Both the position numbers and the translations under genes were made by a program. The notes beneath the pieces were generated by a model that was not told where the DNA came from, ran no database searches, and saw only the letters and a program-made list of their open reading frames with translations. Positions 3,329 through 63,222 of a stretch of DNA of 64,000 bases are shown here, one piece after another; position 1 is the first letter of the stretch; every line of letters starts with the position of its first letter. This stretch comes from Spirochaetia bacterium (lineage in GTDB: Bacteria; Spirochaetota; Spirochaetia; SZUA-6; Bin103): contig CBDBOV010000005.1 in the NCBI GenBank assembly GCA_965208575.1, forward strand, positions 320,001-384,000, written 5' to 3'.

Positions 3329-3357
3329 TTGACGGCGCGCCGCGCCTATGCTAGCGT
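3329..3357 (+). promoter_or_regulatory. sigma70-type promoter of SBP1 leader
   Basis: TTGACG-N17-TAGCGT with TGn extended -10. Confidence 0.7.
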
Positions 3358-3377
3358 GTCTCACTGGGGTTTGACGG

Positions 3378-3515
3378 ATGCCGATGAAGCGTCATGATAA
3401 CAGTCAGCGCAGTAGCCGGTTGGCGGTAACGCAGCCGATGTCCCCCCCCTCCCCGGGACTACCGACTACCGACTACCTAACCGCGCGGCAGCCAGTCGCT
3501 CGGCGCCAGTGCTGA
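3378..3515 (+). CDS. Putative leader peptide (uORF) of SBP1
   Basis: MPMKRHDNSQRSSRLAVTQPMSPPSPGLPTTDYLTARQPVARRQC*; contains a C8 tract and (GACTACC)x3; similar to the 37519 uORF. Confidence 0.45.
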   Translation: MPMKRHDNSQRSSRLAVTQPMSPPSPGLPTTDYLTARQPVARRQC

Positions 3516-3650
3516 CCGCGGCACCATCGATCCGCGCGGCACACAGCCGTGCGTGTGGCGGCGGACCGCGTCGGCCGCAACCTCCACCAGTCTACATCAA
3601 CCGGCGTTGCCGGCACTTCAGTAGAGAGGGGCACATCTGCGCCCGACCGA

Positions 3651-3820
3651 GGGGGTGCAAAATGATACTCAAAGAGCCGCACGCGCGCGGCGTGAGCCGG
3701 GGTGAACCCGGTGAGTCACACGCCGCGCGCTTCACAAATCTGACTCTGTCTGGCCGGCCGTCTGCGTTGCGGGCGCGAGAGTAGCCAGGGAGCGGCAATC
3801 CGCTCCGCAATACTCTCAAG
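3651..3820 (+). promoter_or_regulatory. Conserved structured leader motif A (copy 1)
   Basis: Closely similar to 16883-17045(-) and 37702-37870; stems GCGCGCGGCGTG/CACGCCGCGCGC and GAGAGTA/TACTCTC. Confidence 0.7.
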
Positions 3821-3842
3821 AACACATTTTATGGAGAAAACC

Positions 3843-5669
3843 ATGAAATATATCGTAAGCATGAGAATGACCTTCGCGGTTGCGCTGGTCATGATGCTGA
3901 CCGCGACCGGCCTCTGGGCCACCGGCGCAGACGAGGAGGAGCCGGCAGTCGCTGCCGACAGAGAGACGGTGTTCGACCCCGCCACCGGCATAACGTGGAC
4001 CGCGCCAGAGTATGGCGGAACACTCACGTGGGGCGCTAACGGTCTGCCCAAGAATACTGACCTGTGGGCGCCTGGTGGCTGGACGCCGCACCTCATCAGT
4101 GGCGTCAATGAGAAGCTAGTGCACGGCAACTGGGCAATATCCAGGGACAAGGTGGCTGAACTAGCTTGGATCTATTCGGGCCCAGAGATGTACCGAGGGG
4201 CTCTGGCTGAAAGCTGGGAAATGCCCGATGACACAACGTGGATCTGGAACATCCGCCAGGGCGTTCACTACCACGATAAGGCGCCGATGAACGGTCGGGA
4301 GTTCGATGCTTATGACGTCGAATGGAACTATCACCGCTTTTGGGGTCTGGGTGATTTCACCGAAGACGGACCTACCCCCAACCTGGCGGTAAGAGCTTTC
4401 GGTATAGAGCTCGAATCGGCAACGGCCACCGACCAATGGACGGTTGAGCTTAAGCTGACGAAGCCTTACCCCAATACGGTGTACTTGATGTCCCACAACC
4501 TGACTTGGATGTTGGCCCGCGAGGTAGTCGAGCAATACGGCGACTATGGGGATTGGAGGAACGTGGTCGGCACGGGGCCCTATCAACTGACTGACCTTGT
4601 CGAGGACACCTCGGCAACCTGGGAAAAGAATCCCAACTACTGGGGCTACGACGAAAAATTCCCGGACAACCGCCTACCCTATATTGACACGTTGAAAAAC
4701 CTCGTTATACCAGACAAGGCAGCACGTCTGGCGGCAATGCGCACCGGTAAGATTGATATGCTTAGTATGACCGGCGACGCTCGGATATTCAGCGTCGACA
4801 ATATAGAGAGCCTGCAGAAGACCAACCCTGAAATTGAGGTGTGGCCCGTTTATGCCTTTTCCAGTGGCTCTCATATTTTTAACCAGTCTCTGCCACTCAT
4901 GCAGGACGTCAATGTGCGCAAGGCACTGCAGATGGCAGTGGACCGCGAGACGATTTCCGCTACCTTCCTTAAGGGTTGGGGAGATCCAGCACCTAATGGG
5001 ATAGTAAGTCAGAGGCAGGTAGGGTGGAACTGGCCGTATGAAGAATGGCCCGAAGAGGTCAAGGCAGGCTATCGGCATGACCCGGCAGAGGCAGAAGCGT
5101 TGCTTGATGAGGCCGGATATCCACGAGGCGCCGACGGCGTTCGATTCACGCTCAAGTTTGGCCATGCCGGTTGGTCGGATCCGGCCTATCCAGAAGTCGT
5201 CATAGCGTACTTTGACGCCATTGGCGTGAAGAGCGAGCTGGTTGTGGTTCCTGGCGCTGAGATGGGACATTACATGTCTACGGAAGCGCACGATCTCCAC
5301 CTGGTTAATTGGGTGGGATATCCGATTTTCCCCCCCTCGCCCGATGTATATAGGCTCACAAGTAACCCCTGGAGTCGTACACTCGGTCGTCACTGGAGCA
5401 AAGCGAAGGACCCGGAAATGGACGCCCTGATTGCCGAAATGCAAGCTACTACCACCGCGGAGGAGTGGCAGAGCTTACATGTACGGGTCGATGAGAAAAC
5501 GGTAAGGGAGCACTGGGGCTTGGTGAAACCCATCTCCCCTCAGTTTAGCGTGACCCAGCCGTGGGTCGAGGGTTATTTCGGTGAAGCAGGTCTGGGATAC
5601 GCTGAACGTAATACCTTCAAGGCCCGCCTCTGGATTGATAGTGCGCTGAAGGCAGCAAGCGGTCGTTAG
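3843..5669 (+). CDS. ABC transporter substrate-binding protein, family 5 (SBP1)
   Basis: Signal peptide ending TGLWA; PEYGGTL, LAESWE, VGTGPY, NPNYW, VRKALQMAVD motifs. Confidence 0.95.
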   Translation: MKYIVSMRMTFAVALVMMLTATGLWATGADEEEPAVAADRETVFDPATGITWTAPEYGGTLTWGANGLPKNTDLWAPGGWTPHLISGVNEKLVHGNWAISRDKVAELAWIYSGPEMYRGALAESWEMPDDTTWIWNIRQGVHYHDKAPMNGREFDAYDVEWNYHRFWGLGDFTEDGPTPNLAVRAFGIELESATATDQWTVELKLTKPYPNTVYLMSHNLTWMLAREVVEQYGDYGDWRNVVGTGPYQLTDLVEDTSATWEKNPNYWGYDEKFPDNRLPYIDTLKNLVIPDKAARLAAMRTGKIDMLSMTGDARIFSVDNIESLQKTNPEIEVWPVYAFSSGSHIFNQSLPLMQDVNVRKALQMAVDRETISATFLKGWGDPAPNGIVSQRQVGWNWPYEEWPEEVKAGYRHDPAEAEALLDEAGYPRGADGVRFTLKFGHAGWSDPAYPEVVIAYFDAIGVKSELVVVPGAEMGHYMSTEAHDLHLVNWVGYPIFPPSPDVYRLTSNPWSRTLGRHWSKAKDPEMDALIAEMQATTTAEEWQSLHVRVDEKTVREHWGLVKPISPQFSVTQPWVEGYFGEAGLGYAERNTFKARLWIDSALKAASGR

Positions 5670-5705
5670 GGGTTTCATCTCCCTGTGGCTGACCTCGGGG
5701 AAAAA

Positions 5706-5739
5706 GGGAACTGGGGGGCTCAAGCCCCCCAGTTTTCCC
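5706..5739 (+). terminator. Intergenic stem-loop between SBP and permease
   Basis: CTGGGGGGC-TCAA-GCCCCCCAG followed by TTTT; same element at 11645-11677. Confidence 0.65.
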
Positions 5740-5752
5740 ATACTCGTGTGAC

Positions 5753-6754: not shown

Positions 6755-6763
6755 AGGAAGCAT

Positions 6764-8784: not shown

Positions 8785-9026
8785 GCGGGCGCCATCGAGG
8801 TTCAGACGAGGCTCTTCCTACACCACCTCTAACCCTGACGTTCAGGTCTTCACCCCGTGACCCCTGTGACCCCCGTGACCCGACACCGCGCGACGATGGC
8901 ACGTGCGGCCGCCTGTGCTTCGAGCGCGTCGAGGGACTCCAGAGTAGAAGGTCGCCACCGCCGCCAAGGTCGCCACCGAGGAGGAGGCGGTGCGCAACGG
9001 AGCTGGCCGGCCTTGACCGCGAGCGG

Positions 9027-9170: not shown

Positions 9171-9200
9171 TTGACATGGATTGGGGACGGCCTCTACACT
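9171..9200 (+). promoter_or_regulatory. sigma70-type promoter of SBP2 leader
   Basis: TTGACA-N18-TACACT. Confidence 0.65.
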
Positions 9201-9256
9201 CGTCGCGAATGGGTACCGACACCATCCGCCCCAACCGCTGCCTAGCGCTGAGCCAG

Positions 9257-9296
9257 CCGACTACCCGACTACCCGACTACCCGACTACCCGACTAC
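9257..9296 (+). repeat. Tandem 8-mer repeat (CCGACTAC)x5 in SBP2 leader
   Basis: Five perfect units seen directly, inside an ORF starting at ATG 9209. Confidence 0.95.
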
Positions 9297-9657
9297 CGCG
9301 CGCCGCTAGCCGCTCAGCCGACCGAGCCGCGGGCGACCGCCCGGTGCCGGTGCTGAGCGCGGCAGCATCGATCCGTGTGGCGCACAGCCGCCACGCATCC
9401 GTGCGTCCTAGCGGCCGACCCCGTCGGCCGCCACTTCCACCAGTCCAGACCAGCATGCGTAGCGCCGCTTGCCGGCCGCCACGCGTGGCGTGCGCAGGCA
9501 TGCCCTTTCGGCGCGGCGCACGGGCGTCAAGGAGGTACGGCCTAGAGGATTAACGTAGAGACCGGGCGGCCGCGGACGCGAAGGGTGTCGCCCTCGCTCG
9601 ACTGAGGGAGCAGGCGAGGGGCCGGCAGTGGCAACAGCGCTCTCGAAGGAGATCTCA

Positions 9658-11451
9658 ATGAGGTTTTTCAAAACAGGCCTCGCGATAGTGTGCGGTCTCA
9701 TGCTGACCGCGACCGGCCTCTGGGCCGCTGGCGCAGACGAGGAGGAGCCGGCAGTCTCTGCCGACAGAGAGACGGTGTTCGACCCCGCCACCGGCAAGAC
9801 GTGGACCGCGCCAGAGTATGGCGGGACAATCACGTGGGCACATAAGCGCTTTCCTAAGAGCGCTGACGTGTGGGAGGTTGGTGGCTGGGGGCCTCACTTC
9901 GTCAGTGGCGTTAATGAGAAGCTATCCTTCGCCGACTGGGGACTATCCAGGGAAGAGCACTTTGACCTATACATCATTGTGACCCCAGAGATGACGAGAG
10001 GGAATCTGGCTGAAAGCTGGTCGCAACCCGACGCCACAACGTTCATTTGGAACATCCGCCAGGGCGTTAACTGGGACAATAAGGCGCCGGTGAACGGTCG
10101 GGAGTTCGATGCTCATGACGTCGTATGGAACTATCACCGCTATTTTGGTCTGGGCGATTTCACCGAAGTCGGACCTAGCCCCCAGAGTCGTGGTATTGGT
10201 CAGGGTGTAGAGATCGAATCGGCAAGGGCCACCGACAAATGGACGGTTGAGATTAAACACAAGCCTGCCCCCGGTGTGCTGGGGAAGATGCTCCACAACG
10301 TGTTTTTTGTGTACGCGCCCGAGGTAGTCGAGAAAGACGGCGGCGCTGCGGATTGGCGGAACGTGGTCGGCACCGGGCCCTATCGACTGACTGAGCACGT
10401 CGAGGGCAGCTCGGCAACCTGGGAGAAGAATCCTAACTACTGGGCCTACGACGAAAAATTCCCGCAGAACCGCCTGCCCTATATTGACACGTTAAGGTCC
10501 CTGGTGATACCGGAGAGCTCAGCACGTCTGGCGGCAATGCGCACGGGAAAGATTGATATGCTGAGTAACACCGGCGACGCTTTTATAACGAGTATCGACG
10601 ATGTAGAGAGCCTCCAGAAGACCAACCCTGAAATCGAGGTGTGGCCCCGTTATAGCTGGATAACGGGCCCTTCCATTTTTAACCAGTCTCTGCCGCTCAT
10701 GCAGGACGTCAATGTGCGCAAGGCACTGCAGATGTCAGTGGACCGCGAGACAATTTCTGCTACCTTCTTTAAGGGTTGGGCAGATCCAGCACCTTATGGT
10801 TTGGTACATCAAGGTTCTAAAGGGTGGGCCTGGCCATATGAAGACTGGCCCGAAGAGGTCAGGGCAGGCTATAGGTATGACCCGGCAGGGGCAGAAGCGT
10901 TGCTTGATGCGGCTGGACATCCGCGCGGCTCCGACGGATATAGATTCACGGTCAAGCTAGGCCATTTCGACAGGTACGACCCGGCCTATGCAGAAATCGT
11001 CATCGGGTACTTCGACGCCATTGGCGTTAAAGGCGAGCTTGCTATTCTGACTGACGCTGAGGTGAGACCTCTCAACGCGGCGGACACGCACGAGTTTCAC
11101 TTAATGAATAATGCATATGGGACTTTGTCCCCCTCCTTATATGTACAGAGAATAACACGATTTGGTGATGATGACTACGCCAAAGCGAATGACCCGCGAA
11201 TGGATGCCCTGGTTGCCGCCATGCAAAATCCTACCACCCTGGAGGAGTGGCAGGGCTATTATCGACAGGCCGATGAGATCGCTATAAGGGAGCACTGGGG
11301 CCTAATTAAGTCCAACGCCCCTAAGTTTAGCTTGAGCCAGCCGTGGGTCGAGGGTTATTCCGGTGAATTTGGTATGGGATGGGGTGAACGTAATACCTTC
11401 ATGGCCCGCCTCTGGATTGATAGTGAGCTAAAGGAATCAATGGGTCATTAG
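9658..11451 (+). CDS. ABC substrate-binding protein family 5 (SBP2)
   Basis: Close paralogue of SBP1; AAGGAG RBS before ATG 9658. Confidence 0.95.
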   Translation: MRFFKTGLAIVCGLMLTATGLWAAGADEEEPAVSADRETVFDPATGKTWTAPEYGGTITWAHKRFPKSADVWEVGGWGPHFVSGVNEKLSFADWGLSREEHFDLYIIVTPEMTRGNLAESWSQPDATTFIWNIRQGVNWDNKAPVNGREFDAHDVVWNYHRYFGLGDFTEVGPSPQSRGIGQGVEIESARATDKWTVEIKHKPAPGVLGKMLHNVFFVYAPEVVEKDGGAADWRNVVGTGPYRLTEHVEGSSATWEKNPNYWAYDEKFPQNRLPYIDTLRSLVIPESSARLAAMRTGKIDMLSNTGDAFITSIDDVESLQKTNPEIEVWPRYSWITGPSIFNQSLPLMQDVNVRKALQMSVDRETISATFFKGWADPAPYGLVHQGSKGWAWPYEDWPEEVRAGYRYDPAGAEALLDAAGHPRGSDGYRFTVKLGHFDRYDPAYAEIVIGYFDAIGVKGELAILTDAEVRPLNAADTHEFHLMNNAYGTLSPSLYVQRITRFGDDDYAKANDPRMDALVAAMQNPTTLEEWQGYYRQADEIAIREHWGLIKSNAPKFSLSQPWVEGYSGEFGMGWGERNTFMARLWIDSELKESMGH

Positions 11452-15064: not shown

Positions 15065-16861
15065 CTAACGACCCATTTCTTCCTTTAGCTGACTGTCAAT
15101 CCAGAGGCGGGAGAACATGGTATAAGTCTCGCCCTTCGCCAGCTCTACCTCACCGTTATAGCCTATGACCCACGGCTGGTAGGCAACAAAAAATGGAAGT
15201 TTCGGACTCCATATCAGCCAGTGATTCGCCATCGCATACATGTCCGCCTCGCTCACCAGCCTCTGCTGCTCCTCAGTGGTCGTAGCTGCCAGTGCAGCGT
15301 CAACGAGAGCGTCCAACTTAGGCCACTGGGTGCCGCCGCGGTTCCACTGGTTGTCCGAGTGATACCAGCTTACCGTCATCTCAGGATCATAGATGGTGCC
15401 GGAAATGGCACTGACCATGCCTTCATAGGTACGCGAGAATAGCCTTTCGTGATACTCGCCGTAGTCGAGTACATCGATCTCGACATCGACGCCGATCTCG
15501 GCCCAGTAGGCAACAGCTATTTCTACGTAGCCCAAATCTGCCCAAGGTCCGTAGTTCAAGACGGTCTTGAATCTGGTGCCGTCGGCGCCGCGCGGATACC
15601 CAGCGTCATCGAGGAGCTTCTCGGCACCTTCCGAGTCGTACCGATAGCCTTCCTTGACCTCTTCCGGCCACTGGTCAAATGGGATGAAATACCCCTTCAC
15701 CCCTACCAGTCCCTGAGGTGTCGGATCTGCCTGACCCTTATGGTACGTGTTGGCAACGGTCTCGAGGTCCAGCGCCATCTGCATCGCCTTGCGCACTCGG
15801 ATGTCGTCAAAGGGCGGCACGCGCACGTTAGCGGCAAAGGCGTCATTCGACCGAAACGGAACCGGGTGCTGCACGATCTCCGGGTTGGTTTGCCGTAGGC
15901 TATCCGACTGGTCGATGCTATTCATTTCACCACCCCCAAGGGGTCTCGCATCGATCTTGCCAGTGATTAATGCCGCCTGAATTGTTGCGTGATCTGCAAA
16001 ATTCAGTACCCTTATCTCGTCCACGTAGGGCAAACGGTTCTCCGGGTACTTTTCGTCATAGCCCCAGTAGTCAGGATTCTTGGTCAAAGTGAACGAGCTG
16101 TCCTCGTCAAGTGCAGTCAGCTCGAACGGTCCGGTGCCAACCAGGTTCTTCCAGTCCTTGACGTCACCGTGTTCTCTGATTACCTCAGGCGGCATGATGA
16201 ACGTGAAGTACTCTTCGAGGATAAGCCGCAGCGCAGGGAGGTGTATCTCGTTCAGCTTCATCACCACCGTCGAATCGTCGGTGGCTGTTATCGACTCGAA
16301 TGGGATGGAGGTGAGTGGGCCAGCGGCATTGAAGGCGCTCGGTCCGGCCTCGGTGAACTCGCCCATGCCCAATATGCGGTGAAAGTTGAATTCGATGTCG
16401 TGTGCAGTGAGCTCGCGACCGTTCATCGGCGCCTTATCATGCCAGCGAACGCCCTTGCGGATGTGGAAGGTATGGGTGAGGCCGTCCGGGGAAATATCCC
16501 ATCTTTCAGCCAGCCTCCCGGTAAAGACAGAAAGAGGGATCGGGCCAGATCTAAAATCCCATTCGTCTCTGTCTATTCCCCAGTCGCCGATACCTAGCTT
16601 CTCTGCGACGAGCTGAACATGGAGTCCGCCCCAGCCAAAGTAGGGGTCAGTATCCGAACCGATTCCAAGTCGTTTACCGATGGTAAGTGTCCCGCCGTAC
16701 TCCGGCGCTACTACGACCTTGCCGGTGGTGGGGTCGGTCACATATTTCTTGTCGGCAGCGGCTGCCGGCTCCTCTTCTGCGCCGGCGGCCCACAGGCCGG
16801 TTGTGGTCAGAACCAGGACCAACACAACCGCGAAGGTCCTTGTGATTCTTGCGATATTCAT
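15065..16861 (-). CDS. ABC substrate-binding protein family 5 (SBP3)
   Basis: TGLWAAGAEEE, PEYGGTL, VGTGPF, NPDYWGYDEKYP. Confidence 0.95.
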   Translation of the reverse strand: MNIARITRTFAVVLVLVLTTTGLWAAGAEEEPAAAADKKYVTDPTTGKVVVAPEYGGTLTIGKRLGIGSDTDPYFGWGGLHVQLVAEKLGIGDWGIDRDEWDFRSGPIPLSVFTGRLAERWDISPDGLTHTFHIRKGVRWHDKAPMNGRELTAHDIEFNFHRILGMGEFTEAGPSAFNAAGPLTSIPFESITATDDSTVVMKLNEIHLPALRLILEEYFTFIMPPEVIREHGDVKDWKNLVGTGPFELTALDEDSSFTLTKNPDYWGYDEKYPENRLPYVDEIRVLNFADHATIQAALITGKIDARPLGGGEMNSIDQSDSLRQTNPEIVQHPVPFRSNDAFAANVRVPPFDDIRVRKAMQMALDLETVANTYHKGQADPTPQGLVGVKGYFIPFDQWPEEVKEGYRYDSEGAEKLLDDAGYPRGADGTRFKTVLNYGPWADLGYVEIAVAYWAEIGVDVEIDVLDYGEYHERLFSRTYEGMVSAISGTIYDPEMTVSWYHSDNQWNRGGTQWPKLDALVDAALAATTTEEQQRLVSEADMYAMANHWLIWSPKLPFFVAYQPWVIGYNGEVELAKGETYTMFSRLWIDSQLKEEMGR

Positions 16862-16882
16862 ACGTAACTCCGTACGTGGATT

Positions 16883-17045
16883 ATTTGAGAGTATTGCGTA
16901 GCGGGCTTGCCGCTTCCTGGCTACTCTCGCGCCCGCAACGCGGGCGGCCAGACAGAGTCGAATTCACCAAAGCGCGCGGCGTGTGACTCAACGGGGGTCA
17001 CGCCGCGCGCGCGTGCGGCTCTTTGAGTATCATTTTGCACCTCCA
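16883..17045 (-). promoter_or_regulatory. Conserved structured leader motif A (copy 2)
   Basis: Reverse complement matches 3651-3820; shorter loop in the long hairpin. Confidence 0.7.
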
Positions 17046-17306
17046 TTTTCTGTAGACCGCTCGGCGGACGTCGGGACCTGCGTCACAACGCCACGCGGGG
17101 TCGTGGTCGGCGAAGCACCGCGTCTGAATAGCCGGCAACGCCGGCGGAGGGTCTTGCCGGGAGTCAGTCGCGGGCGGGGTTCCGGCACGGCTGCGGTCGC
17201 CGCGAAGGGCGCGAAGGGCGCGGGCGGTCCGCATGCCGGTTCGGCGGTGGTGAAGGCGACGGCGTGCGCGGGGTCGCGTACGGGGCGATCAGCCGGAGCG
17301 GTTAGT

Positions 17307-19284: not shown

Positions 19285-19419
19285 GTTAGTTGTTTCTCGG
19301 TTCGAAAAGCTGGGGGGGGGGTAGACAGACGTATCGCCGGCCGCTTCAAGGCTAACCAGTAGCTGCGCGGGTACGTATCGTCATGCATCGTGCGCATCGG
19401 TCGCGATCCCAAGGTGGTG

Positions 19420-19448
19420 ACGTTAGCCGAATCGGCAACAGCCGTCAA
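19420..19448 (-). promoter_or_regulatory. sigma70-type promoter of SBP3 leader (separated from the gene by the IS)
   Basis: TTGACG-N17-TAACGT on the minus strand, followed by uORF MRTMH... from 19397. Confidence 0.7.
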
Positions 19449-37465: not shown

Positions 37466-37494
37466 TTGACAGTGTGCGGCGGGCATTGCAAAGT
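37466..37494 (+). promoter_or_regulatory. Probable sigma70 promoter of SBP5 leader
   Basis: TTGACA-N17-CAAAGT (weaker -10), same position relative to the uORF as the other copies. Confidence 0.5.
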
Positions 37495-37518
37495 AATGTG
37501 ATCAGGGATTCTTGCCGC

Positions 37519-37611
37519 ATGCCGACCACCCTCGACCATAGCATTCAGCGCAGGCACCGGTTGACGCAGATGTCCCCCCCCCCGGCAACTCTTTATATGA
37601 CAAACCATTAA
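37519..37611 (+). CDS. Putative leader peptide (uORF) of SBP5
   Basis: MPTTLDHSIQRRHRLTQMSPPPATLYMTNH*; C10 tract. Confidence 0.5.
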   Translation: MPTTLDHSIQRRHRLTQMSPPPATLYMTNH

Positions 37612-37701
37612 CCGCTTCCGCTGATCGCCGCGTACGCGACCCCGAGCACGCCGTCGCCTTCACCACCGCCGTACCTGTCGGTGGCGCCGGCTACGGAATA
37701 C

Positions 37702-37870
37702 GGCGGTGCAAGGTGGTACTCAAAGAACCGCACGCGCGCGCGGCGTGAGCCCGGGTGAACCCGGTGAGTCACACGCCGCGCGCTTGCAGAGACTTGACTC
37801 AGACTGGCGGCCCGCGTTGCGGGTGCGAGAGTAGCCAGGGTAGCGGTAAGTCGCTCCGCAATACTCCAAG
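37702..37870 (+). promoter_or_regulatory. Conserved structured leader motif A (copy 3)
   Basis: Matches 3651-3820. Confidence 0.7.
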
Positions 37871-37892
37871 AGATCTACATACGGAGCAGCGT

Positions 37893-51941: not shown

Positions 51942-53771
51942 TCAGAATCCCATTTCTCGCTTCAGATCCTGGTCGATCCAGAGGCGGGCGAGGATGGGAT
52001 GATACGTCAGGTCTCCTAGCGAGTATTCACCGTTATAGCCCTTGACCCACGGATTGTTCGCCTGAAACTGTGGCGCCAGAGGACCCCAAATCTGCATGTG
52101 TTGCTCGAGCACGAACATATTGTACGCTTTCGCTGCCTCGAACTGCTCCTCTTTGGTCGTAGCAGCGTAATAGGCATCGGAGGCCGCGTCCAGCACGGAG
52201 GTGTCGATTGCGCATGGGTCGCTACAGGCCAAGTATTCGCGGGGGAACAGATTGCTATCGCGATGAGTCTGCATGGCCCAGACAGCAGCCGGATGGCCCA
52301 TGTCGCCAGTGGCCATTTCATACGCGGTTTCTGCCTTGGCAGCCACCCAAGTCCCCGTGTCGGCAATACGGGTCGTTATATCAACGCCAATATCAGCCCA
52401 GTACCCGGCGGCGACTTCCGTATAGCCCAAGTCTATGACGTCTCGGTGCAAATACTCTGCCGTGAATCGAATTCCGTCCGCGCCGCGCGGATAGCCTGCC
52501 TCATCCAGGAGCTTCTCGGCACCCTCCGGGTCATACCTGTAGTATTGCTGGAGCTCTTCTGGCCACTCTTCAAATGGGGTGTAGTGCCCCTTGGCGCTAA
52601 TCCACGCAGGGTCTTCCCAGTCTGAAAAACCGCCAAAGTAGGTATCGTCAATCGTCTCCAGATCGAGTGCCATCTGCAGTGCGTGGCGCACCCTGACGTC
52701 GTCAAATGGCGCGTTGCGAATGTTCAGAGTAAAGACCTGAAACGCCCGCTGGTAGTAACTGTACACCTCGATTTCCGGGTTGGTCCTCTGGATGCTCCTT
52801 ATCACGTCCATGTTTCCTATGTCAGCGACCCCTGCGTGTTGTATGATATCAATCTTACCCGTACGCAGTGCCGAGATACGGGTTGCTTCTTCTGCCATGA
52901 GGGGGGCCCTTATCTCGTCAACATAGGGCAAGCGGTTCTCCGGGTATTTCTCGTCGTAGTCCCAGAAGTCAGGATTCCTGGTAAAGGTCTTGGAGACGCC
53001 CTCGACATACTCGGTCAGGATAAGAGGCCCGGTGCCGACCACGTTCTTCCAGTCCTCATAGTTGCCGTAATGCTCGATTACGTCGCGGGGTAGTATCCAA
53101 CTCTGGCTTTCACCGAGGATCGGTTGTAGCGCATCGAGGTATGGCTCAGTGAGCTTCATAACAACCGTATATCTGTCGGTGGCCTCTATCGATTCCCATG
53201 GCAGGTTGAACGTGGGGCCGGCCTGAGCGGGAGGTTCGGTGAAGTCCCCCTGAGCGGTCTGGCGCTGATAGGAATAGACGACATCATCGGCGGTCAGCTC
53301 CCGACCGTTTACCAACCGACTGGCCTCACTGTCCGGATCAAGAGCGTAGTGAACGCCCTGGCGGATGTGAAAGACGTAGGTCACCGGGTCGGGCGTCTCC
53401 CAGCTTTCCGCCAGATTCCCGGTCAGGACGTGGGTAGGAACGAAATTGTCCGTCCAGTCGAATACTTCCCTATCCAGTGCCCAGTCCCCGATGGCGAGCT
53501 TCTCATTGACACCGTCTATGAGCCAGCCCGCTTCGAAGCCAACAGCAAAGGGGTCTACATTGTCGCTTACCCTACCACCCCAGCCGTAGGTCAGTGTCCC
53601 GCCGTACTCCGGCGCGGTCACCATCTTTCCGGTGGCGGGGTCCATCACCATTTCCTTCTCCATGGCGGCTGCCGGCTCCTGTTCGGCGGCCGGGCTTGCC
53701 CACAGGCCGGTCGCGGCCACACCGAAACCGATCAGTACCGCCAGGGTCTTTCGCAAGACTGCGTATTGCAT
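51942..53771 (-). CDS. ABC substrate-binding protein family 5 (SBP6)
   Basis: MQYAVLRK...TGLWASP; AGGAGG RBS; family motifs. Confidence 0.95.
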   Translation of the reverse strand: MQYAVLRKTLAVLIGFGVAATGLWASPAAEQEPAAAMEKEMVMDPATGKMVTAPEYGGTLTYGWGGRVSDNVDPFAVGFEAGWLIDGVNEKLAIGDWALDREVFDWTDNFVPTHVLTGNLAESWETPDPVTYVFHIRQGVHYALDPDSEASRLVNGRELTADDVVYSYQRQTAQGDFTEPPAQAGPTFNLPWESIEATDRYTVVMKLTEPYLDALQPILGESQSWILPRDVIEHYGNYEDWKNVVGTGPLILTEYVEGVSKTFTRNPDFWDYDEKYPENRLPYVDEIRAPLMAEEATRISALRTGKIDIIQHAGVADIGNMDVIRSIQRTNPEIEVYSYYQRAFQVFTLNIRNAPFDDVRVRHALQMALDLETIDDTYFGGFSDWEDPAWISAKGHYTPFEEWPEELQQYYRYDPEGAEKLLDEAGYPRGADGIRFTAEYLHRDVIDLGYTEVAAGYWADIGVDITTRIADTGTWVAAKAETAYEMATGDMGHPAAVWAMQTHRDSNLFPREYLACSDPCAIDTSVLDAASDAYYAATTKEEQFEAAKAYNMFVLEQHMQIWGPLAPQFQANNPWVKGYNGEYSLGDLTYHPILARLWIDQDLKREMGF

Positions 53772-54263
53772 CTTTGCCTCCTGCAATTCGAGAGTGCCGG
53801 TCTCACTGTGCATCCGTCGCCCACTCTCGACGCGCACCGGCAATCTCCGGTGCCCGGAAAGCGACGGCGACAGCCCCGAGCTACATCGACATCCGGCACC
53901 TCCTTGAACGCGCGCGCGGACCTGAGCCCGGAGCACCGCGTGAGGCGGTGTGCTGCGGCGTAGCGAAAGTCAGGGACCGGCAACGTCGGCGGTGCGGTGT
54001 GCAGGCGGTCGGAGGAGCGGCGGTGCGGCCGAAGCGGCGCGCGGGGCGATCAGCCGGAGCGACTATTGCTTGTGATTCAGGTATTTGCCGGGGGGGGGTA
54101 GGACACACCGGGTCCCGTTAACCGGTGGCGTCCTCAAGTGCCTGTGGTATTGCATCGTCCACATAAGCCTGTTCTCCGACAGAGGGGCATCATAAGCCAC
54201 GCGCAACGGGCTGTCAAATCGCGCGGAGCACGACCCTGCGGCACTGCTCAATCCGCGAAGATC
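53772..54263 (-). promoter_or_regulatory. Conserved leader type B (copy 1): promoter, uORF, structured RNA
   Basis: TTGACA(54217-54212)-N17-TATGAT(54194-54189); highly similar to 58843-59343 and 62764-63222. Confidence 0.8.
54063..54164 (-). CDS. Putative leader peptide of SBP6
   Basis: MWTMQYHRHLRTPPVNGTRCVLPPPGKYLNHKQ*; frame conserved in three copies. Confidence 0.55.
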   Translation of the reverse strand: MWTMQYHRHLRTPPVNGTRCVLPPPGKYLNHKQ

Positions 54264-55865: not shown

Positions 55866-55874
55866 GAGCGCACC

Positions 55875-57003: not shown

Positions 57004-58842
57004 TCAGAATCCCATTTCTTCCTTTAGATCTTGGTCAATCCAAAGGTGGATGAGGACGCTCTTTGTTCCCGCATCCAGCACGTCCATTTCGCCGTTCCAG
57101 CCTTTCACCCACGGCTGGGCCAGCTGATAAAACGGAGCCATGGGAGGCCAAATCTGATTGTGCTGCTTTATCCCGAGCATATCAAACTCTTTGAATGCCC
57201 TCTGCTGCTCCTCAAGGGTGGTAGCGGCGAAAAAGGCTTCATAGGCGGCGGTCATCTCAGCGGTCTCGACATACCCGCCGATGTAATCGCGGCTAAATGG
57301 GCTCTCATCGCGATACCAGGCCATCAACTTTGAAGGGGCGAGATTAAAGCCCATGTCGCCAGTGGACATCTCATAGACAAGCTCTCCTGTATCACTGAAC
57401 GCCGAATGGCCCCTCCGACCGGCCCACGTAGCCGTGTCAACTATATTGATCGTTACATCAACGCCAATCGCAGCCCAGTAGCTTATGGCCACCTCTGGCC
57501 AGCCAATATCCCAGACATCGCGGTGGTCATAGGTGACCTTGAATCGAACGCCTTCCGCGCCGCGCGGATATCCAGCCTCATCGAGGAGCTTCTCGGCACC
57601 TTCCGGGTCATAGCGCCAGTATTGCTTGACCTCCTCGGGCCACTCTTCAAATGGGCTTCTATACTCCGGGAAGGCAAACCCTATCATCCCCATGGGTTCA
57701 GGCCTTGCGAAACCGCCAAAGAAGGTATCGTTAATCGTCTCGAGGTCCAGTGCCATCTGCATAGCGTGGCGTACCCTGACGTCGTCAAAAGGCGGCTTGT
57801 ACATGTTCAGTATGAAAGCACCACTCCCCCGCAGAAAATAGGGGCCCACCTGGATGTCGGGGTTGGTATTCTGGAGGCTCCTCAAAACGTCGCGGGATGT
57901 TATGGCAGCGCCGCCGCCGCCGGCGAAATGTATCATATCAACCTTACCCGTGCGTAGCGCCGCGATACGTGTTGCTTCTTCTTCCATATGCAGGCCCCGC
58001 AGCTTGTCAATATAGGGCAAGCGGTTCTCCGGGTATTTTGGGTCGTGGCCCCAGTAGTCAGGATTCTTGTCCCAGGTAGTCGAGACGCCTTCGACATAGT
58101 CAGTCAGCATAATGGGTCCGGTGCCGACCACGTTTCTCCAGTCCTTATAGTGGCCGTATTGCTCAATTACCTCGGGGGGCAGTATCCAACCCTGTTGGTC
58201 GGCGTGGATCGCCGTCAGCGCAGTGAGGTATGGTTCGGTCAGCTTGAATACAACCGTATATTTGTCGCTGGCCTCTATCGATTGCCATGGCAGGTTGATC
58301 AACTCGTAAGTCTGGAGGGGACGTTCGGTGAAGTCGCCTAGAACTACATTACGCTGAAAGGTATACACGACATCATCGGCAGTTAGCTCTCGACCATTCA
58401 TCGGTGGCTTATCATGCCAGTGAACGCCCTGGCGGATTTTGAAGATAATAGTTAGTGGGTCGGGCTGCTCCCAGCTTTCCGCCAGCCACCCTCTAGTTGC
58501 AGCTTCAATAAAGGTGAATGAGGTGGAAAAGTCCCATACGTCCCTATCTATTGCCCAGTCCCCCCAGGCGAGCTTCTCATTAACGGTACCGATCAGGTAT
58601 TCAACAGGGTGGCCAGTAATAAAGGGGTCACTAGTGTCGCTCACTGCTTTGTAGGGATAGGTTAGTGTTCCGCCATACTCCGGCGCGGTCACCACCTTGC
58701 CGGTGGCAGGGTCCATCACCATTTCCTTGTCCATGGCGGCGGCGGGCTCCTCTTCCCCGGCCGGGCTTGCCCACAGGCCGGTCGCGGCCAGACCGAGACC
58801 GATCAGTACCGCCAGTATCCTTCGCAAGATTGCATATTGCAT
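57004..58842 (-). CDS. ABC substrate-binding protein family 5 (SBP7)
   Basis: MQYAILRR...TGLWASP; family motifs. Confidence 0.95.
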   Translation of the reverse strand: MQYAILRRILAVLIGLGLAATGLWASPAGEEEPAAAMDKEMVMDPATGKVVTAPEYGGTLTYPYKAVSDTSDPFITGHPVEYLIGTVNEKLAWGDWAIDRDVWDFSTSFTFIEAATRGWLAESWEQPDPLTIIFKIRQGVHWHDKPPMNGRELTADDVVYTFQRNVVLGDFTERPLQTYELINLPWQSIEASDKYTVVFKLTEPYLTALTAIHADQQGWILPPEVIEQYGHYKDWRNVVGTGPIMLTDYVEGVSTTWDKNPDYWGHDPKYPENRLPYIDKLRGLHMEEEATRIAALRTGKVDMIHFAGGGGAAITSRDVLRSLQNTNPDIQVGPYFLRGSGAFILNMYKPPFDDVRVRHAMQMALDLETINDTFFGGFARPEPMGMIGFAFPEYRSPFEEWPEEVKQYWRYDPEGAEKLLDEAGYPRGAEGVRFKVTYDHRDVWDIGWPEVAISYWAAIGVDVTINIVDTATWAGRRGHSAFSDTGELVYEMSTGDMGFNLAPSKLMAWYRDESPFSRDYIGGYVETAEMTAAYEAFFAATTLEEQQRAFKEFDMLGIKQHNQIWPPMAPFYQLAQPWVKGWNGEMDVLDAGTKSVLIHLWIDQDLKEEMGF

Positions 58843-59343
58843 CTTTGCCTCCTGCAATCCGAGAGTGCTGGTCTCACTGTGCATCCGTCGCCCACTCTCG
58901 AGGCGCACCGGCAATCTCCGGTGCCCGGAAAGCGACGGCGACAGCCCCGAGCTACATCGAAATCCGGCACCTCCTTGATCGCGCGCGCGGACCTGAGCCC
59001 GGAGCACCGCATGAGGCGGTGTGCTGCGGCGTAGCGAAAGTCAGGGACCGGCAACGCCGGCGGTGCGGTGTGCAGGTGGTAAGAGGAACGGTGCAGGCGA
59101 AGCGGCGCGCGGGGCTATCGGCCGGAGCGATTATTGCTTGTGATTCAAGTATTTGCCGGAGGGGGGGTAGGACACACCAATCCCGTCAACCGGTGGCGTC
59201 CTCAAGTGCTTCTGGTAGTGCATCGTCCACATAAGCCTTTTCGCCGACAGGAGGGCCAAGTCTATTCCACGCGCAACGAGCTGTCAAATCGCGCGGAGCA
59301 CGACGAGCACGACCCTGCCGCGCTGCTCAATCCGCGAAGATCT
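58843..59343 (-). promoter_or_regulatory. Conserved leader type B (copy 2)
   Basis: TTGACA(59287-59282)-N17-TAGACT(59264-59259). Confidence 0.8.
59131..59232 (-). CDS. Putative leader peptide of SBP7
   Basis: MWTMHYQKHLRTPPVDGIGVSYPPSGKYLNHKQ*. Confidence 0.55.
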   Translation of the reverse strand: MWTMHYQKHLRTPPVDGIGVSYPPSGKYLNHKQ

Positions 59344-59495
59344 TGTTGGTGTCGAGGTTCAGTCCCGCCAACAGCGGCGATGTCGGGCGCTGCCCTTCCG
59401 GGTAGCGCTGCACCGGCTCGAAGTCATGCTGGGCGAGCGCCAGCACCTCGATGGTGCGAGCTTCGGCTACCACCCAGTACTCGGCCACGCCGTCT
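59327..59495 (-). pseudogene. C-terminal fragment of Uma2 (DUF820) endonuclease
   Basis: GVAEYWVV...RTIEVLAL...SPLLAGLNLD..KIF. Confidence 0.8.
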
Positions 59496-59514
59496 TGCTT
59501 TCCCGGTGCAATCA

Positions 59515-59557
59515 GACATATTGTTACCACTTATAAATCAAGTGGAGACAATTTGTC
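59515..59557. promoter_or_regulatory. Inverted-repeat operator upstream of AbiEi
   Basis: GACATATTGTTACCACTT-N7-AAGTGGAGACAATTTGTC (15/18 match). Confidence 0.7.
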
Positions 59558-59568
59558 TGAGCCGGACC

Positions 59569-60162
59569 ATGCAAGAACGACCTGAAGAGATCTTCCGCCG
59601 GCACGGCGGCCAGCTCCGCATGAGCGAAGCCCTGGCGCACGGGATGACGCGCTACACCCTCTATGCGCTGAGGGACCGGGGCGTTGTCGAGCTGGTGAGC
59701 CGGGGCATCTACCGGCTGGTGGAACTGCCTCCCATTGGCAACCCGGACCTGGTCACGGTGAGCCTACGCTTCCCGAACGCCGTGATCTGTCTCGTCTCCG
59801 CGCTGGCCTTTCACGACATCACGACCCAGATCCCCCATGAGGTCTCCGTGGCGGTGCCACGGGCATCGCGTGTGCCGTCGCTGGACTATCCGCCCGTCCG
59901 GGCGTACCGATTCTCCGCGGAAACCTACCGACCCGGCATCGAAGCCCATCGCATCGATGGCGCGACGGTAAAGGTCTACAACAGCGGGAAGACCCTGGTC
60001 GACTGCTTCAAGTTCCGCAACAAGATCGGCATGGACGTGGTGCTGGAGGCGCTCAAACTCCACAAGGAACGAAACGGCTTCGATGTTCGGGTACTGCTTG
60101 GCTACGCCAAGGTCTGCCGGATGGAGAAGGTGATGCGGCCCTATCTGGAGGCCACCGTATGA
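59569..60162 (+). CDS. Type IV TA antitoxin AbiEi family
   Basis: RGIYRL, ICLVSALAFHDITTQIP, KTLVDCFKFRNKIG. Confidence 0.92.
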   Translation: MQERPEEIFRRHGGQLRMSEALAHGMTRYTLYALRDRGVVELVSRGIYRLVELPPIGNPDLVTVSLRFPNAVICLVSALAFHDITTQIPHEVSVAVPRASRVPSLDYPPVRAYRFSAETYRPGIEAHRIDGATVKVYNSGKTLVDCFKFRNKIGMDVVLEALKLHKERNGFDVRVLLGYAKVCRMEKVMRPYLEATV

Positions 60163-60678
60163 CGGCACTCCGCAACGTACCCGCGTCGGTGCGGCAACGA
60201 CGTCGGGTACGGCGACGTGGTATATCCCGCACCCGAGGCGGCGGACCTTCCGACCATGCTGGACTTCCCGGCGCCGCGGCTGCTCTGCTACAGCCGCGAA
60301 TCCTGCATTGCGGAAAAGCTCGAAGCCGCGGTCAAGCTCGGCATGCTGAACAGCCGGATGAAGGACTTCTACGACATCTGGCTGCTGTCCCGTCAGTTCG
60401 ACTTCGATGGGTCCGAGTTGGCCGCGGGCATTCGGCGCACTTTCGAGCGTCGGGGAACGGCGCTTCCCGTGGCAATCGAGGCATTCACCCAGCCCTTCAT
60501 CGATTCCAAGCAGATTCGATGGATGGCGTTCCGGAACAGGCTCCAGTAGGATCATGTCCCCGCCTCGTTCACCGACATTGTGGCCGCGATGGCCGGCTTC
60601 CTGTCGCCCATCGTCGCGGCCGTTTCCTCCCGCCAACCCGTTCCGAACCACTGGACCGCACCCGGCCCGTGGACCTGA
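60159..60678 (+). pseudogene. AbiEii nucleotidyltransferase toxin, deleted and interrupted
   Basis: Start NVPASVRQR jumps out of frame to DVGYGDVV..AEKLEA..NSRMKDFYD; premature TAG at 60547; residual frame ends at 60678. Confidence 0.85.
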
Positions 60679-60974
60679 GTGTCCGGTGTCTGCGCGCCCT
60701 CCTGGCGGGCGGTGAGGCGTACCCGGATGCGACCCGCTGGCTCGTCACGCTTGACTTCCGCGCCGCGGCGCCTGCCGGACACCGTGAAACTGGGCGGCCG
60801 CGCCCAGTTGGCTGCTCGAAGACTGGTGATCCTGACCCGGGCGGCGCCGTAGCGGCCGAGGCGGCCGCGCAGGCGCCGCAGGCGGGGGTCCACCAAGCCG
60901 AGCGCCGCTGCAATGCAAGTCGGCGCAGGCGCGCCAGGCGCGCCTGCAATGGAACCCGCCCCTGGGCGGTTTCC

Positions 60975-62763
60975 TCAGAATCCCATTTCTCGCTTCAGAT
61001 CCTGGTCAATCCAGAGGCGGGCGAGGATGGTATGAAACAGAAAGTTTCCCATCCTGGTTTCACCGTTAAAACCTTTCACCCACGGTTGGCTGGCCTGATA
61101 ACTTGGAGCCAGAGGAAGCCCTATGTTATTGTGCTGCGTCATTAACGCCATACCAAACTGTTTTGCCGCCATTATCTGATCATCGATGCTGGTGGCGGCG
61201 AAAAAGGCAGCTTGGGCGGCGGCCAGATCAGGGTTCTCGACTCCGCCCATCCATTCACTTTGGTAAGGGACCTCGGAGCCATACGCCGACATGCTCGGGG
61301 TCGGGATCTCCCTGGCCATGGCGCCATAAATCGACTCATAGTTTTGTTCTGACCAATAACCGGTCAAAGTCCCCCAGTCGGCCGTACCAATCGTTACATC
61401 AACGCCAATATCATCCCAGTAGCCGGCGGCTATTTCTATAATGCCCAGATCTGCGATGTCGCGGTGCAGATGTTCGAACTTGAAGCGGACGCCGTCGGCG
61501 CCGCGCGGATATCCTGCCTCATCAAGGAGCCTCTCCGCACCTTCCGGGTCGTAGGTGTAGTATTGCTTGAGTTCTTCGGGCCACTCTTCCCATTCGGTGT
61601 AATACCCCTTGGCGCCAAGGTAGCGAGGTGGGTGCCACTGGGCGAAACCGCCATAGTAGGTATCGTTGATCGTCTCCAGGTCCAATGCCATCTGCAGTGC
61701 GTGGCGTACTCTGATGTCGTCAAAGGGGGCGTTGCGTATGTTCAGACTGAAAGCATCCGCCCGTTGGAAAAATGGCCATATCGCGATCTCGGGGTCGGTC
61801 CGCTGCAGGCTCCTTACCACGTCGATGGACTTTATCTCATTACCAGCGAGGCGTATCATATCAATCTTACCCGAGCGCAGTGCCGATAAGCGGGTCGCTT
61901 CTTCCGCTATATGCAGGGCCATCAGCTCGTCGACATAGGGCAGGCGGTTGTCCGGGTATTTTGGGTCGTAGCCCCAGTAGTCAGGATTCTTGGCATAGGT
62001 CTTGGAGACGCCTTCGACATAGTCAGTCAGAATGAGGGGCCCGGTGCCGACCACGTTCTGCCAATCCTTGTAGTCGCCGTATTGCTCGATTACCTCGGGG
62101 GGGTAATATCCAGAACAAGTGTTCGGCGATGATAGCCTCTAGCGCACCGAGGGAGGGCTCCATCAACTTCATGACAACCGTGTATTCGTCGGTGTCCTCG
62201 ATCGATTCCCATGGCAGATCGACAGCGGCAGTGGTACGTACAGGACGTTCGGTAAAGTCACCCTGAGCGGTAATGCGCTGATAGGTATAGACGACATCAT
62301 CGGCAGTGAGCTCGCGCCCGTTCACCGGTGCCTTGTTATGCCAGTGAACGCCCTGACGGATGTGAAAGACGTACGTTAGTGGGTCGGGCGTTTCCCAGCT
62401 TTCCGCCAGCTCCCCGGTGTAAGTAAACAGAGGAACGTAAGGCCCATCAAAGCCGAATTCTTTCCTATCCAGACCCCAGTCCCCGACGGCGAGTCTCTCA
62501 TTGACACCGTCTATGAGAAAGCCCGCATAGGCGCCGGCACTAAAGGGGTCGGCAGTTTCGCCAATCAAGACATACGAAACGATCAACGTCCCGCCGTACT
62601 CTGGCGCGGTCACCATCTTGCCGGTGGCGGGGTCCCTCACCATCTCCTTCTCCGTGGCGGCGGCCGGCTCCTCTTCGCTGGCCGGGCTTGCCCACAGGCC
62701 GGTGGCGGCCAGACCGAAACCGATCAGTACCGCCAGGATGTTTCGCAAGACTGCGTATTGCAT
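60975..62763 (-). pseudogene. ABC substrate-binding protein family 5 (SBP8), frameshifted in a homopolymer
   Basis: Two ORFs joined at G7 62097-62103; the paralogue SBP7 has G6 at the same WILPPEV position. Confidence 0.88.
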
Positions 62764-63222
62764 CTTTGTCTCCAAAAAATTCGAGAGTGCTGGTCTCGCT
62801 GTGCATCCGTCGCCCACTCTCGATGCGCACCGGACATCTCCGGTGCCCGGAAAGCGACGGCGCCAGCCCCGAGCTACATCGACATCCGGCACCTCCTTGA
62901 ACGCGCGCGCGGACCTGAGCCCGGAGCACCGCATGAGGCGGTGTGGCGAAAGTGAGGGACCGGCAACGCCGACGGTGCGGTGTGCAGGTGGTAAGAGGAG
63001 CGGTGCAGGCGAAGCGGCGCGCGGGGCGATCAGCCGGAGCGATTATTGCTTGTGATTCAAGTATATACCGGGGGGGGGGGGGTAGGACACACCTATCCCG
63101 TCAACCGGTGGCGTCCTCAAGTGCTTCTGGTATTGCACCGTGAACATAAGCCTTTTCGCCGACAGAGAACGAGTCTATTCCACGCGCAACGAGCTGTCAA
63201 GTCGCGCGGAGCACGACGAGCA
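62764..63222 (-). promoter_or_regulatory. Conserved leader type B (copy 3)
   Basis: TTGACA(63200-63195)-N17-TAGACT(63177-63172). Confidence 0.8.
63043..63147 (-). CDS. Putative leader peptide of SBP8
   Basis: MFTVQYQKHLRTPPVDGIGVSYPPPPGIYLNHKQ*; C13 tract. Confidence 0.55.
   Translation of the reverse strand: MFTVQYQKHLRTPPVDGIGVSYPPPPGIYLNHKQ

Follow-up and report, generated by a model that had tools for sequence, protein, structure and literature searches.

The window analysed here is a 64-kb part (64,000 nucleotides, nt; positions 320,001 to 384,000 of contig CBDBOV010000005.1) of the 6.5-Mb genome of a Spirochaetia bacterium (67% G+C; hereafter G000). It contains the transporter loci SBP1 to SBP8, named for the solute-binding protein (SBP) genes of their ABC transporters, and at seven of them (SBP1–3 and SBP5–8) the operon is preceded by a leader that carries a simple repeat inside an upstream open reading frame (uORF). 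Our analysis revealed that these seven leaders are members of a family that extends across the genome and the genus, and that the leader feature is real, far beyond chance and much larger than seven sites. The family has a three-frame layout, with stop codons in two frames just past the repeat and a third frame that stays open. We propose that repeat phase controls downstream expression through translation-dependent antitermination, a proposal whose chances we judge to be evenly balanced.

Repeat leaders and their three-frame layout

A tblastn search with six window SBPs as queries identified 171 SBP loci genome-wide, 114 of which were close SBP_bac_5 paralogues whose alignment included the N-terminus. 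Upstream of 51 of these 114 we found the conserved 3' leader module, recognised by the motif of a short open reading frame (mini-ORF), and a C run of at least 6 lay within 800 nt upstream of 42 of the 114 (rows counted by hand). Leader DNA matches were found in 10 of 21 related genomes, including 7 of 10 from the same genus (1–49 matches each) and, weakly, 2 of 2 from the sister genus; none occurred in eight genomes from other families of the order. A scan of public genomes for an exact 22-nt leader motif found it in the 7-Mb metagenome-assembled genome (MAG) chromosome of a Spirochaetia bacterium and in a sponge MAG contig, and the sequencing runs containing the window were mostly labelled sponge metagenome.

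C or G runs of at least 8 were concentrated in these leaders, which held 37 of the 55 runs genome-wide, and all 37 leader tracts had C on the sense strand (flanks read by hand in both counts). In the window, all five C runs of at least 8 fell within the leaders, and C7 matches across the window were not enriched (23 versus 21 expected). Rfam 15 gave no match at gathering score across the whole window, and at E values up to 1 the sole match in two leaders was a chance microRNA on the opposite strand. The G+C content of three measured window SBP genes was about 56%, compared with 67% for the genome.

The elements followed a fixed order. A TTGACA-type promoter came first, followed by a short basic uORF and a C-rich simple repeat, past which stood two stops in two frames. 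Promoters were called by sequence pattern only. The TTGAC(A/G) hexamers reported by the first-pass annotation of the window were found exactly at 3329, 9171, 19448 (minus strand), 37466, 54217 (minus), 59287 (minus) and 63200 (minus). As full promoters the seven sites fared less well: only four (9171, 54217, 59287 and 63200) passed a strict two-hexamer scan, and 3329, 19448 and 37466 failed it. Promoter-like sites were not commoner than in shuffled sequence between 3000 and 20000 (3 versus 5.5) and weakly commoner between 53000 and 64000 (6 versus 3.3). A regular-expression promoter census of the 114 upstream regions left many without a promoter or ATG call and mis-called several.

An ATG followed each window promoter (3378, 9209, 19397, 37519, 54164, 59232 and 63147), and the repeats read as annotated, namely C8+(GACTACC)3, (CCGACTAC)5, C10, C10, C9, C7TCC and C13 for SBP1, 2, 3, 5, 6, 7 and 8. 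SBP4 was correctly described as lacking such a leader; its 5' region is only about 90 nt long and contains no repeat. Two further descriptions held everywhere except at SBP3, whose leader is interrupted by an insertion sequence (IS): the stop context TA(A/G)(C/T)CGC was found in six of seven leaders, and the leader length of 400–580 nt did not apply to SBP3, where the leader is split over 2.6 kb and resumes at 17304 on the minus strand.

The repeat units were 1, 7, 8 or 10 nt long, none divisible by three, and lay inside ATG-started leader ORFs. At least three classes were distinguished: poly-C tracts from C6 to C55, the CCGACTAC family, whose 7/8-nt unit occurs once to about 15 times, and a 10-nt unit in 1–7 copies; an additional 8-nt unit occurred in 10 copies in the leader of a relative. 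These distinct classes occupied one common leader position in different leader sub-families, 280–570 nt upstream of the SBP start codon and outside the regulated coding frame, and all were C-rich and G-poor on the sense strand. The longest tract, a 55-nt poly-C at 509488-509542 of contig C4 in G000, is currently in the long frame and would encode at least 18 prolines; further leader tracts of C16, C20 and C21 were seen elsewhere. Between the C tract and the stop motif, the leaders at C4:525098 and C4:537670 contained (AAACCGAG) in two or three copies, and some leaders thus carry two frame-shifting repeats in series.

Repeat length differed in 4 of 4 leader pairs with flank identity of at least 90% upstream and at least 85% downstream of the repeat (C9 versus C12; the 10-mer in two, three and seven copies). 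The comparison set consisted of other repeated elements with a C7 run or a single 10-mer, which are shorter and less mutable, and was identical in 54 of 54 pairs. Eight copies of one repeated element had 100% identical flanks around C7 and equal run length (e.g., C3:543416, C4:883383 and C6:497006); this element is probably an active IS family. Comparison between samples used the assembled contigs of 21 sequencing runs and revealed differences at two of three tracts: the SBP7 tract had an additional GG in contigs of run X6 (depth 10 of 26.4), and the SBP8 tract was one nt longer in contigs of run X5 (38.5 of 38.5). The SBP5 leader has an orthologue in genome G006; it lies at a contig start with degraded C-tract sequence and was uninformative about tract length. 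Loss of mismatch repair was considered as the cause of the long tracts and rejected, because MutS and MutL domains are both present.

Past the repeat, every class showed two catch stops, a TAA or TAG and then a TGA 4–35 nt further on in a different frame, and the third frame, which the first-pass annotation had overlooked, was open for 80–750 nt. Between the stop motif and the mini-ORF, stops per frame numbered 39, 31 and 3 in G000 (27 copies, 2207 codons), 22, 13 and 3 in G001 (11 copies), 19, 24 and 3 in G005 (12 copies), and 26, 14 and 1 in G003 (10 copies). By frame, 8, 12 and 26 of 28 copies were free of stops. The third frame was still open in the 11 copies whose ATG frame is currently short, where the stops numbered 21, 16 and 0. 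In 19 of 27 copies it ran in frame to the mini-ORF stop, in 6 it ended on an ATGA that overlaps the mini-ORF start, and in 2 it ended elsewhere.

In the 10-nt class, two units led to the TAA, three to the long frame and seven to the TGA. In the window, SBP2 is in the long state, as is SBP3 up to the point where the IS cuts it; SBP1 ends at the second catch stop and SBP5–8 at the first. The uORFs of SBP5, 6, 7 and 8 (30, 33, 33 and 34 codons) do end exactly at the shared stop, as had been annotated. The frame arithmetic given for SBP1–3, by which they miss this stop by one repeat unit, was also correct, but the TAA/TAG in question is one of two catch stops and not a proper end. The underlying idea that repeat length sets where the leader ribosome stops fits the anatomy, with its two stops, open third frame and varying repeat number; the effect on the operon would be the one proposed below. 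A wider tally, read by hand and not rigorous, gave about half long and half short leaders.

The long frame did not resemble a protein-coding gene. Entropy by codon position was 0.59/0.49/0.435, so that third positions were the least variable and no synonymous-site signature was seen, and its G+C content by codon position was flat (0.70/0.67/0.72), compared with 0.59/0.45/0.65 in SBP genes. Ala, Arg, Pro and Thr abound in the predicted product, which varies several-fold in length and matched no Pfam family. At E values up to 0.001 it matched 124 unnamed proteins from metagenome assemblies, a set that is biased to long forms because it contains only ORFs chosen by gene callers. An ordinary small protein gene was rejected as the lead explanation on the flat codon G+C and the missing synonymous signature, and the long-frame peptide is probably not itself under selection, judging from these sequence statistics.

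The long frame might still be a real phase-variable small protein of about 60–250 aa, with the transporter merely co-transcribed. The 124 matching proteins keep both the N- and the C-terminal motif across indels, and the N-terminal codons of the first uORF (uORF1) show slightly more change at third positions (entropy 0.68/0.73/0.84; 68 copies), as such a protein would. These points are offset by the absence of a synonymous-site signature past the repeat, by codon G+C unlike that of the genome's genes, by the composition, lack of a family and length variation of the product, and by the ascertainment of the database set, and we consider this account very improbable. One leader of the short 10-mer class, at C5:139073, has an ORF that continues from the leader ATG in frame into the SBP signal peptide; there, repeat phase would alter the N-terminus of the binding protein itself.

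Slippage at the level of RNA polymerase or the ribosome could also set the frame on C runs, giving mixed frames in each cell and a graded rather than heritable output. Transcriptional slippage is known at such tract lengths (dnaX, endosymbiont poly-A tracts), many of the leader tracts are at least 9 nt long and reach 55 nt, and slippage would explain why the third frame is open in 'off' copies. It is inapplicable to the 7-, 8- and 10-nt classes, which have an equal three-frame layout, and we regard it as the least probable of the accounts considered here.

The 3' module and the proposed switch

The leader ends in a conserved module that precedes the SBP ribosome site. Its mini-ORF is usually 11 codons long (MILKEPHARAA), begins with ATG, GTG or TTG in 90 of 98 distinct copies and has a Shine–Dalgarno (SD)-like motif in 86 of 98. 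Its entropy by codon position (0.31/0.26/0.455; 98 copies) was highest at the third position, and from its sequence the mini-ORF looks translated. The last five mini-ORF codons form the 5' arm of P1, a 12-bp G+C stem located about 110–150 nt before the transporter start codon and followed by stems P2 and P3; the mini-ORF stop falls within this arm. P1, P2 and P3 can pair in about 90–100% of copies (54 distinct copies for P1), and RNAalifold recovered only parts of P1 and P2. Shortened leaders were seen at C4:396228, C6:44008, C6:923098 and C6:586829, where the promoter stands directly before the mini-ORF and P1, or before P2–P3 only; these are natural 'locked' variants that lack the repeat module.

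From this anatomy we infer the following switch. Transcription would start at the TTGACA-type promoter and yield a leader of 430–520 nt in the six intact window copies and of up to about 770 nt elsewhere. The leader ORF, beginning about 20–30 nt past the -10 element, would be translated across a small hairpin and then through the C-rich repeat. Because the unit is never a multiple of three, repeat number sets the frame in which ribosomes exit the repeat. Two of the frames would stop within about 40 nt, at the TAA/TAG and then the TGA, and the third, C-rich and G-poor, would run for 80–750 nt to the stop of the SD-led mini-ORF in the P1 5' arm or to the ATGA start overlap. In the long frame, ribosomes would cover the C-rich leader and open P1, letting transcription and/or translation proceed into the operon. 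Either short frame would leave the leader RNA bare, to be terminated by Rho on C-rich RNA and/or at P1, or to stay folded. Slipped-strand changes in the repeat would switch each of about 50 operons independently and reversibly. Extended to the whole organism, each genome would carry about 50 repeat-phased leader-ORF switches, each gating one of more than 100 SBP-operon paralogues and together giving every cell a random, heritable and reversible uptake subset; we put this extension forward only tentatively, as possible rather than probable.

The composition of the leaders is compatible with a role for Rho. The middle of the leader had a C fraction of 0.406 and a G fraction of 0.288 (7424 nt, 28 leaders), and rho is present (Rho_RNA_bind, 115.6 bits, in a 680-aa open frame). 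Since P1 has no U-tract and 80–750 nt of C-rich RNA would be exposed, Rho-dependent polarity appears at least as likely as termination at the hairpin. RNA contigs of run X15 covered the coding parts of SBPs, and several leader bins had zero depth, which is no evidence on leader transcription.

In an alternative account, what matters in the C-rich repeats is length or base composition and not the frame: they might load Rho (as a rut site), serve as a spacer or be bound by a C-binding protein, tract length tuning the strength of the effect. Such a role would suit the C-rich, G-poor sense strand of all repeat classes, the C orientation of 37 of 37 leader tracts of at least 8, the presence of rho and the excess of C (0.41) over G (0.29) in the leader. 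It leaves the paired out-of-frame stops, the open third frame and the absence of units divisible by three unexplained, and the spread of tract lengths, 6 to 55 between near-identical flanks, speaks against such tuning. We therefore give a length or composition effect little probability.

Stalling on proline runs, dependent on elongation factor P (EF-P) and of the MgtL/MgtP leader type, had been invoked in the first-pass annotation. EF-P is present in the genome. Only the poly-C class encodes proline runs, the 7-, 8- and 10-nt classes encoding none, and the layout is common to all of them; poly-proline/EF-P stalling is thus rejected as a general principle.

Several observations weigh against the proposed switch. 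The 24 class-I leaders comprised 6 ending at the TAA, 7 at the TGA, 7 in the long frame and 4 others (programmatic count), so that no enrichment was seen, either of the 'on' frame or of the in-frame lengths for which the first-pass annotation had proposed a test (6, 7 and 7 of 24 per frame). Such uniform states are equally compatible with fast switching at equilibrium and with neutral drift. When frames were counted from the mini-ORF, G001 gave no signal (26/21/23) and G003 a mixed one (11/17/7); in this count the promoter expression mis-called many starts, the stop-motif anchor gave the clear result reported above, and the choice of anchor matters. Paralogues are not independent, and the frame statistics accordingly overstate significance. 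In the contigs of the probable source run, X1, a single length was found at the tracts at 59160 and 63072, and no change was listed at the SBP6 tract, where the nearest row was a 1-nt omission at 54112. Some repeats were interrupted or lost, as in C7TCC of SBP7 and in copies that have no repeat.

The 3' module contributes further points of this kind. The helices hardly vary between copies, and double changes were rare in the pair counts, so covariation support is weak and the structure rests on strong complementarity. Single-sequence folds of three 3' modules were no better than shuffles (z of -0.88, -1.47 and -0.34). P1 is followed by just two or three T and not by a U-tract, and a terminator scan of the leader sense strand found nothing except the P3 stem of SBP8. 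The mini-ORF has a strong ribosome site of its own, so that P1 could open whatever the repeat phase.

Taken to their end, these points would make the repeats neutral noise, with real control exerted by the 3' module (the mini-ORF and P1–P3, as an attenuator or as a sensor of a ligand or protein) and repeat phase having no effect on the operon. The uniform distribution of frames, the mini-ORF with its own SD and start codon, the paralogues whose promoter lies right before the mini-ORF or P2–P3 and that have no repeat module, and the several interrupted or lost repeats all agree with this. Neutral repeats would not account for unrelated units at one position across leader classes, none of them divisible by three, or for two catch stops past the repeat in every class. 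Nor would they explain a third frame that is stop-free even in out-of-frame copies (21/16/0) and is kept open in three other genomes. We consider neutrality unlikely and retain translation-dependent antitermination as the working reading.

Leaders and genes of the window

The features of the window are as follows.

SBP1 leader: 3329..3843, plus strand; -35 TTGACG at 3329-3334.
SBP1 uORF1: 3378-3515, plus strand; 45 codons, its stop being the second catch stop, TGA.
SBP1 repeats: C8 at 3442-3449 and (GACTACC)3 at 3457-3477, plus strand; first catch stop TAA at 3478-3480.
SBP1 long open frame: 3416..3784, plus strand; 366 nt from stop to stop, crossing the repeat and both catch stops.
SBP1 stems: P1 arms 3683-3694 and 3719-3730, P3 3777-3817, plus strand.
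SBP1 gene: 3844..5669, plus strand; SBP_bac_5, E 4e-61.
SBP2 leader: 9171..9658, plus strand; -35 TTGACA at 9171-9176, spacer 18, TACACT.
SBP2 repeat (CCGACTAC)5: 9257-9296, plus strand; catch stop TAG at 9307-9309.
SBP2 leader ORF, long state: 9209..9553, plus strand; 114 codons, from the first ATG at 9209 through the repeat to TAA at 9551-9553.
SBP2 gene: 9659..11451, plus strand; SBP_bac_5.
SBP3 leader, 5' half: 19285..19448, minus strand; -35 TTGACG at 19448-19443, uORF1 ATG at 19397, C10 at 19321-19312.
Insertion sequence within the SBP3 leader: 17305..19284 (ends approximate), plus strand; DDE_Tnp_1 transposase ORF at 17470-19206.
SBP3 leader, 3' half: 16862..17304, minus strand; stop motif TAA at 17304-17302, long frame to TGA at 17032-17030.
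SBP3 mini-ORF: 17033-16998, minus strand; MILKEPHARAA, its ATG overlapping the long-frame TGA (ATGA).
SBP3 stems: P1 arms 17010-16999 and 16983-16972, P3 16928-16887, minus strand.
SBP3 gene: 15065..16861, minus strand; SBP_bac_5.
SBP5 leader: 37466..37893, plus strand; -35 TTGACA at 37466-37471, C10 at 37574-37583.
SBP5 uORF1: 37519-37611, plus strand; 30 codons, its stop being the catch stop TAA at 37609-37611.
SBP5 long open frame: 37542..37748, plus strand; 204 nt, ending at TGA 37746-37748, which is the mini-ORF stop.
SBP5 mini-ORF: GTG at 37713, plus strand; VVLKEPHARAA, stop inside the P1 5' arm.
SBP5 stems: P1 arms 37736-37747 and 37772-37783, P3 37827-37867, plus strand.
SBP5 gene: 37894..39689, plus strand; SBP_bac_5.
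SBP6 leader: 53772..54217, minus strand; -35 TTGACA at 54217-54212, spacer 17, TATGAT.
SBP6 uORF1: 54164-54063, minus strand; 33 codons, TAG; C9 at 54098-54090.
SBP6 long open frame: 54117-53881, minus strand; shares its stop with the 3-codon mini-ORF at 53892-53881 (MSM), which lies behind AAGGAGG.
SBP6 stem CGAGAGTG/CACTCTCG: 53829-53789, minus strand.
SBP6 gene: 51942..53771, minus strand; SBP_bac_5.
SBP7 leader: 58843..59287, minus strand; -35 at 59287-59282.
SBP7 uORF1: 59232-59131, minus strand; 33 codons, TAA; C7 at 59167-59161, then TCC.
SBP7 long open frame: 59185-58952, minus strand; stem at 58899-58861.
SBP7 gene: 57004..58842, minus strand; SBP_bac_5.
SBP8 leader: 62764..63200, minus strand; -35 at 63200-63195, C13 at 63082-63070.
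SBP8 uORF1: 63147-63043, minus strand; 34 codons, TAA; mini-ORF at 62885-62874.
SBP8 gene: 60975..62763, minus strand; split into frames 62934..62023 and 62054..60975 near a C7 at 62097-62103.

Individual loci departed from the common plan in their 3' parts. The SBP1 mini-ORF starts at 3662 and has 40 codons, being extended through a GC run that is 2 nt shorter, and the long ORF of SBP2 stops within a three-frame stop cluster just past AAGGAGG. SBP6 and SBP7 share the general layout and have a different 3' module, in which the long frame ends at the stop of the 3-codon mini-ORF behind AAGGAGG. The SBP8 leader no longer shows this coupling of long frame and mini-ORF stop: the frame that exits the stop motif ends elsewhere. 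A T run has taken the place of its ribosome site.

The IS in the SBP3 leader leaves the promoter, uORF and repeat on one side and the remaining leader and the gene on the other, and sits exactly at the conserved stop motif; the frame entering that motif is the long frame, and the IS cuts the leader at ACTAACC. This heptamer flanks the IS on both sides and looks like a target duplication. At SBP8, contigs of runs X5, X6 and X15 had one base fewer in the coding C7, and those of X1 did not; the split gene is either a strain-specific pseudogene or a second repeat switch, within the coding region.

Directly upstream of the SBP1 promoter, a partial second copy of uORF1 was seen at 3231-3334, with an ATG, a basic N-terminus and a C6 run; its frame ends at a TGA that overlaps the -35 hexamer. 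At C4:552798 a class-I uORF start is joined to a class-II promoter. Such nested and mosaic arrangements suggest cassette-wise exchange or insertion of 5' modules. Next to the SBP1 locus, the minus strand carries an ORF of 551 aa (1399-3054) whose C-terminal part holds an HNH endonuclease domain.

Known switches and biological meaning

Simple-repeat phase variation is regarded mainly as a pathogen device for varying surface antigens. Contingency loci of Neisseria, Haemophilus and Campylobacter, and the C-tract of the Bordetella fim promoter, use hypermutable repeats for stochastic, reversible on/off switching and combinatorial diversity. Their repeats lie in a structural gene or a promoter spacer and serve surface or virulence genes of pathogens, whereas the repeats described here lie in a leader ORF before nutrient-uptake paralogues of a sponge-associated bacterium.

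Control of Rho by a leader ORF is also established, MgtL/mgtA being a uORF-dependent Rho attenuator. In the uORF-dependent attenuators tnaC, speFL and cruR, as presented in passages of PMC12360218, the position of the leader ribosome decides whether Rho loads on nearby RNA. The leaders studied here resemble these attenuators, as those passages portray them, in that the genome has rho and C-rich, G-poor leader RNA past the uORF stop. The attenuators described there differ in that they respond to a metabolite or ion through ribosome stalling; in the proposed switch, heritable repeat length would take that role, and Rho would act as suggested above. Invertible-DNA phase variation acting through Rho, in E. 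coli fim and C. difficile flgB, appears in passages of the same source (PMC12360218) and is similar in that a heritable DNA switch in the leader decides premature termination; as outlined there, it works by recombinase inversion, without repeat slippage or a reading frame. A repeat combined with uORF-dependent Rho attenuation was found neither in our literature search nor in those passages.

The closest precedent is the pil1 pilus locus of Streptococcus gallolyticus, in which, according to excerpts of Danne et al. 2014 (PMC3894217), experiments showed that the number of GCAGA units decides whether the leader peptide ends before or within a terminator. Because a leader-peptide repeat that toggles antitermination is recorded in these excerpts, the view of the first-pass annotation that the combination was undescribed does not stand; that interpretation was right in spirit, and wrong on the 'proper' stop, on proline stalling and on the lack of a precedent. 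The excerpted pil1 system and the present leaders have in common a repeat, not divisible by three, inside a leader ORF downstream of the promoter, whose number sets the frame and the stop. In both, a hairpin lies upstream of the operon, and the longer peptide ends within it or adjacent to it; in pil1, as the excerpts state, translation of this peptide promotes read-through. In that account, pil1 is a single pilus locus with a 5-nt unit in a Gram-positive host of high A+T content, and its intrinsic terminator has been proven. The present leaders stand before transporter genes at about 50 loci per genome and use several unrelated units. They also have two dedicated catch stops, a long frame of 80–750 nt, an SD-led mini-ORF that shares its stop and a hairpin without a U-tract. 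Our literature search found no further case of repeat-in-leader-peptide control beyond the streptococcal pilus locus. The leader family looks like a new form, present in very many copies, of a switch type that is known but very rare, and its biological setting is unexpected.

Even if the repeats are neutral, the mini-ORF and hairpin module before at least 51 operons is an undescribed leader family, and a selectively open frame that is not protein-like remains new. If the proposed switch is true, the logic of pil1 would be repeated about fifty-fold, randomising the expression of nutrient transporters in a lineage that is host-associated and non-pathogenic. The three-frame device would consist of two catch stops and an antiterminating frame, and the many repeat units, leader lengths and locked variants would provide a large natural series for dissecting how leader translation protects a transcript. 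For the organism itself, the switch would amount to combinatorial bet-hedging over nutrients, a prediction that is directly testable.

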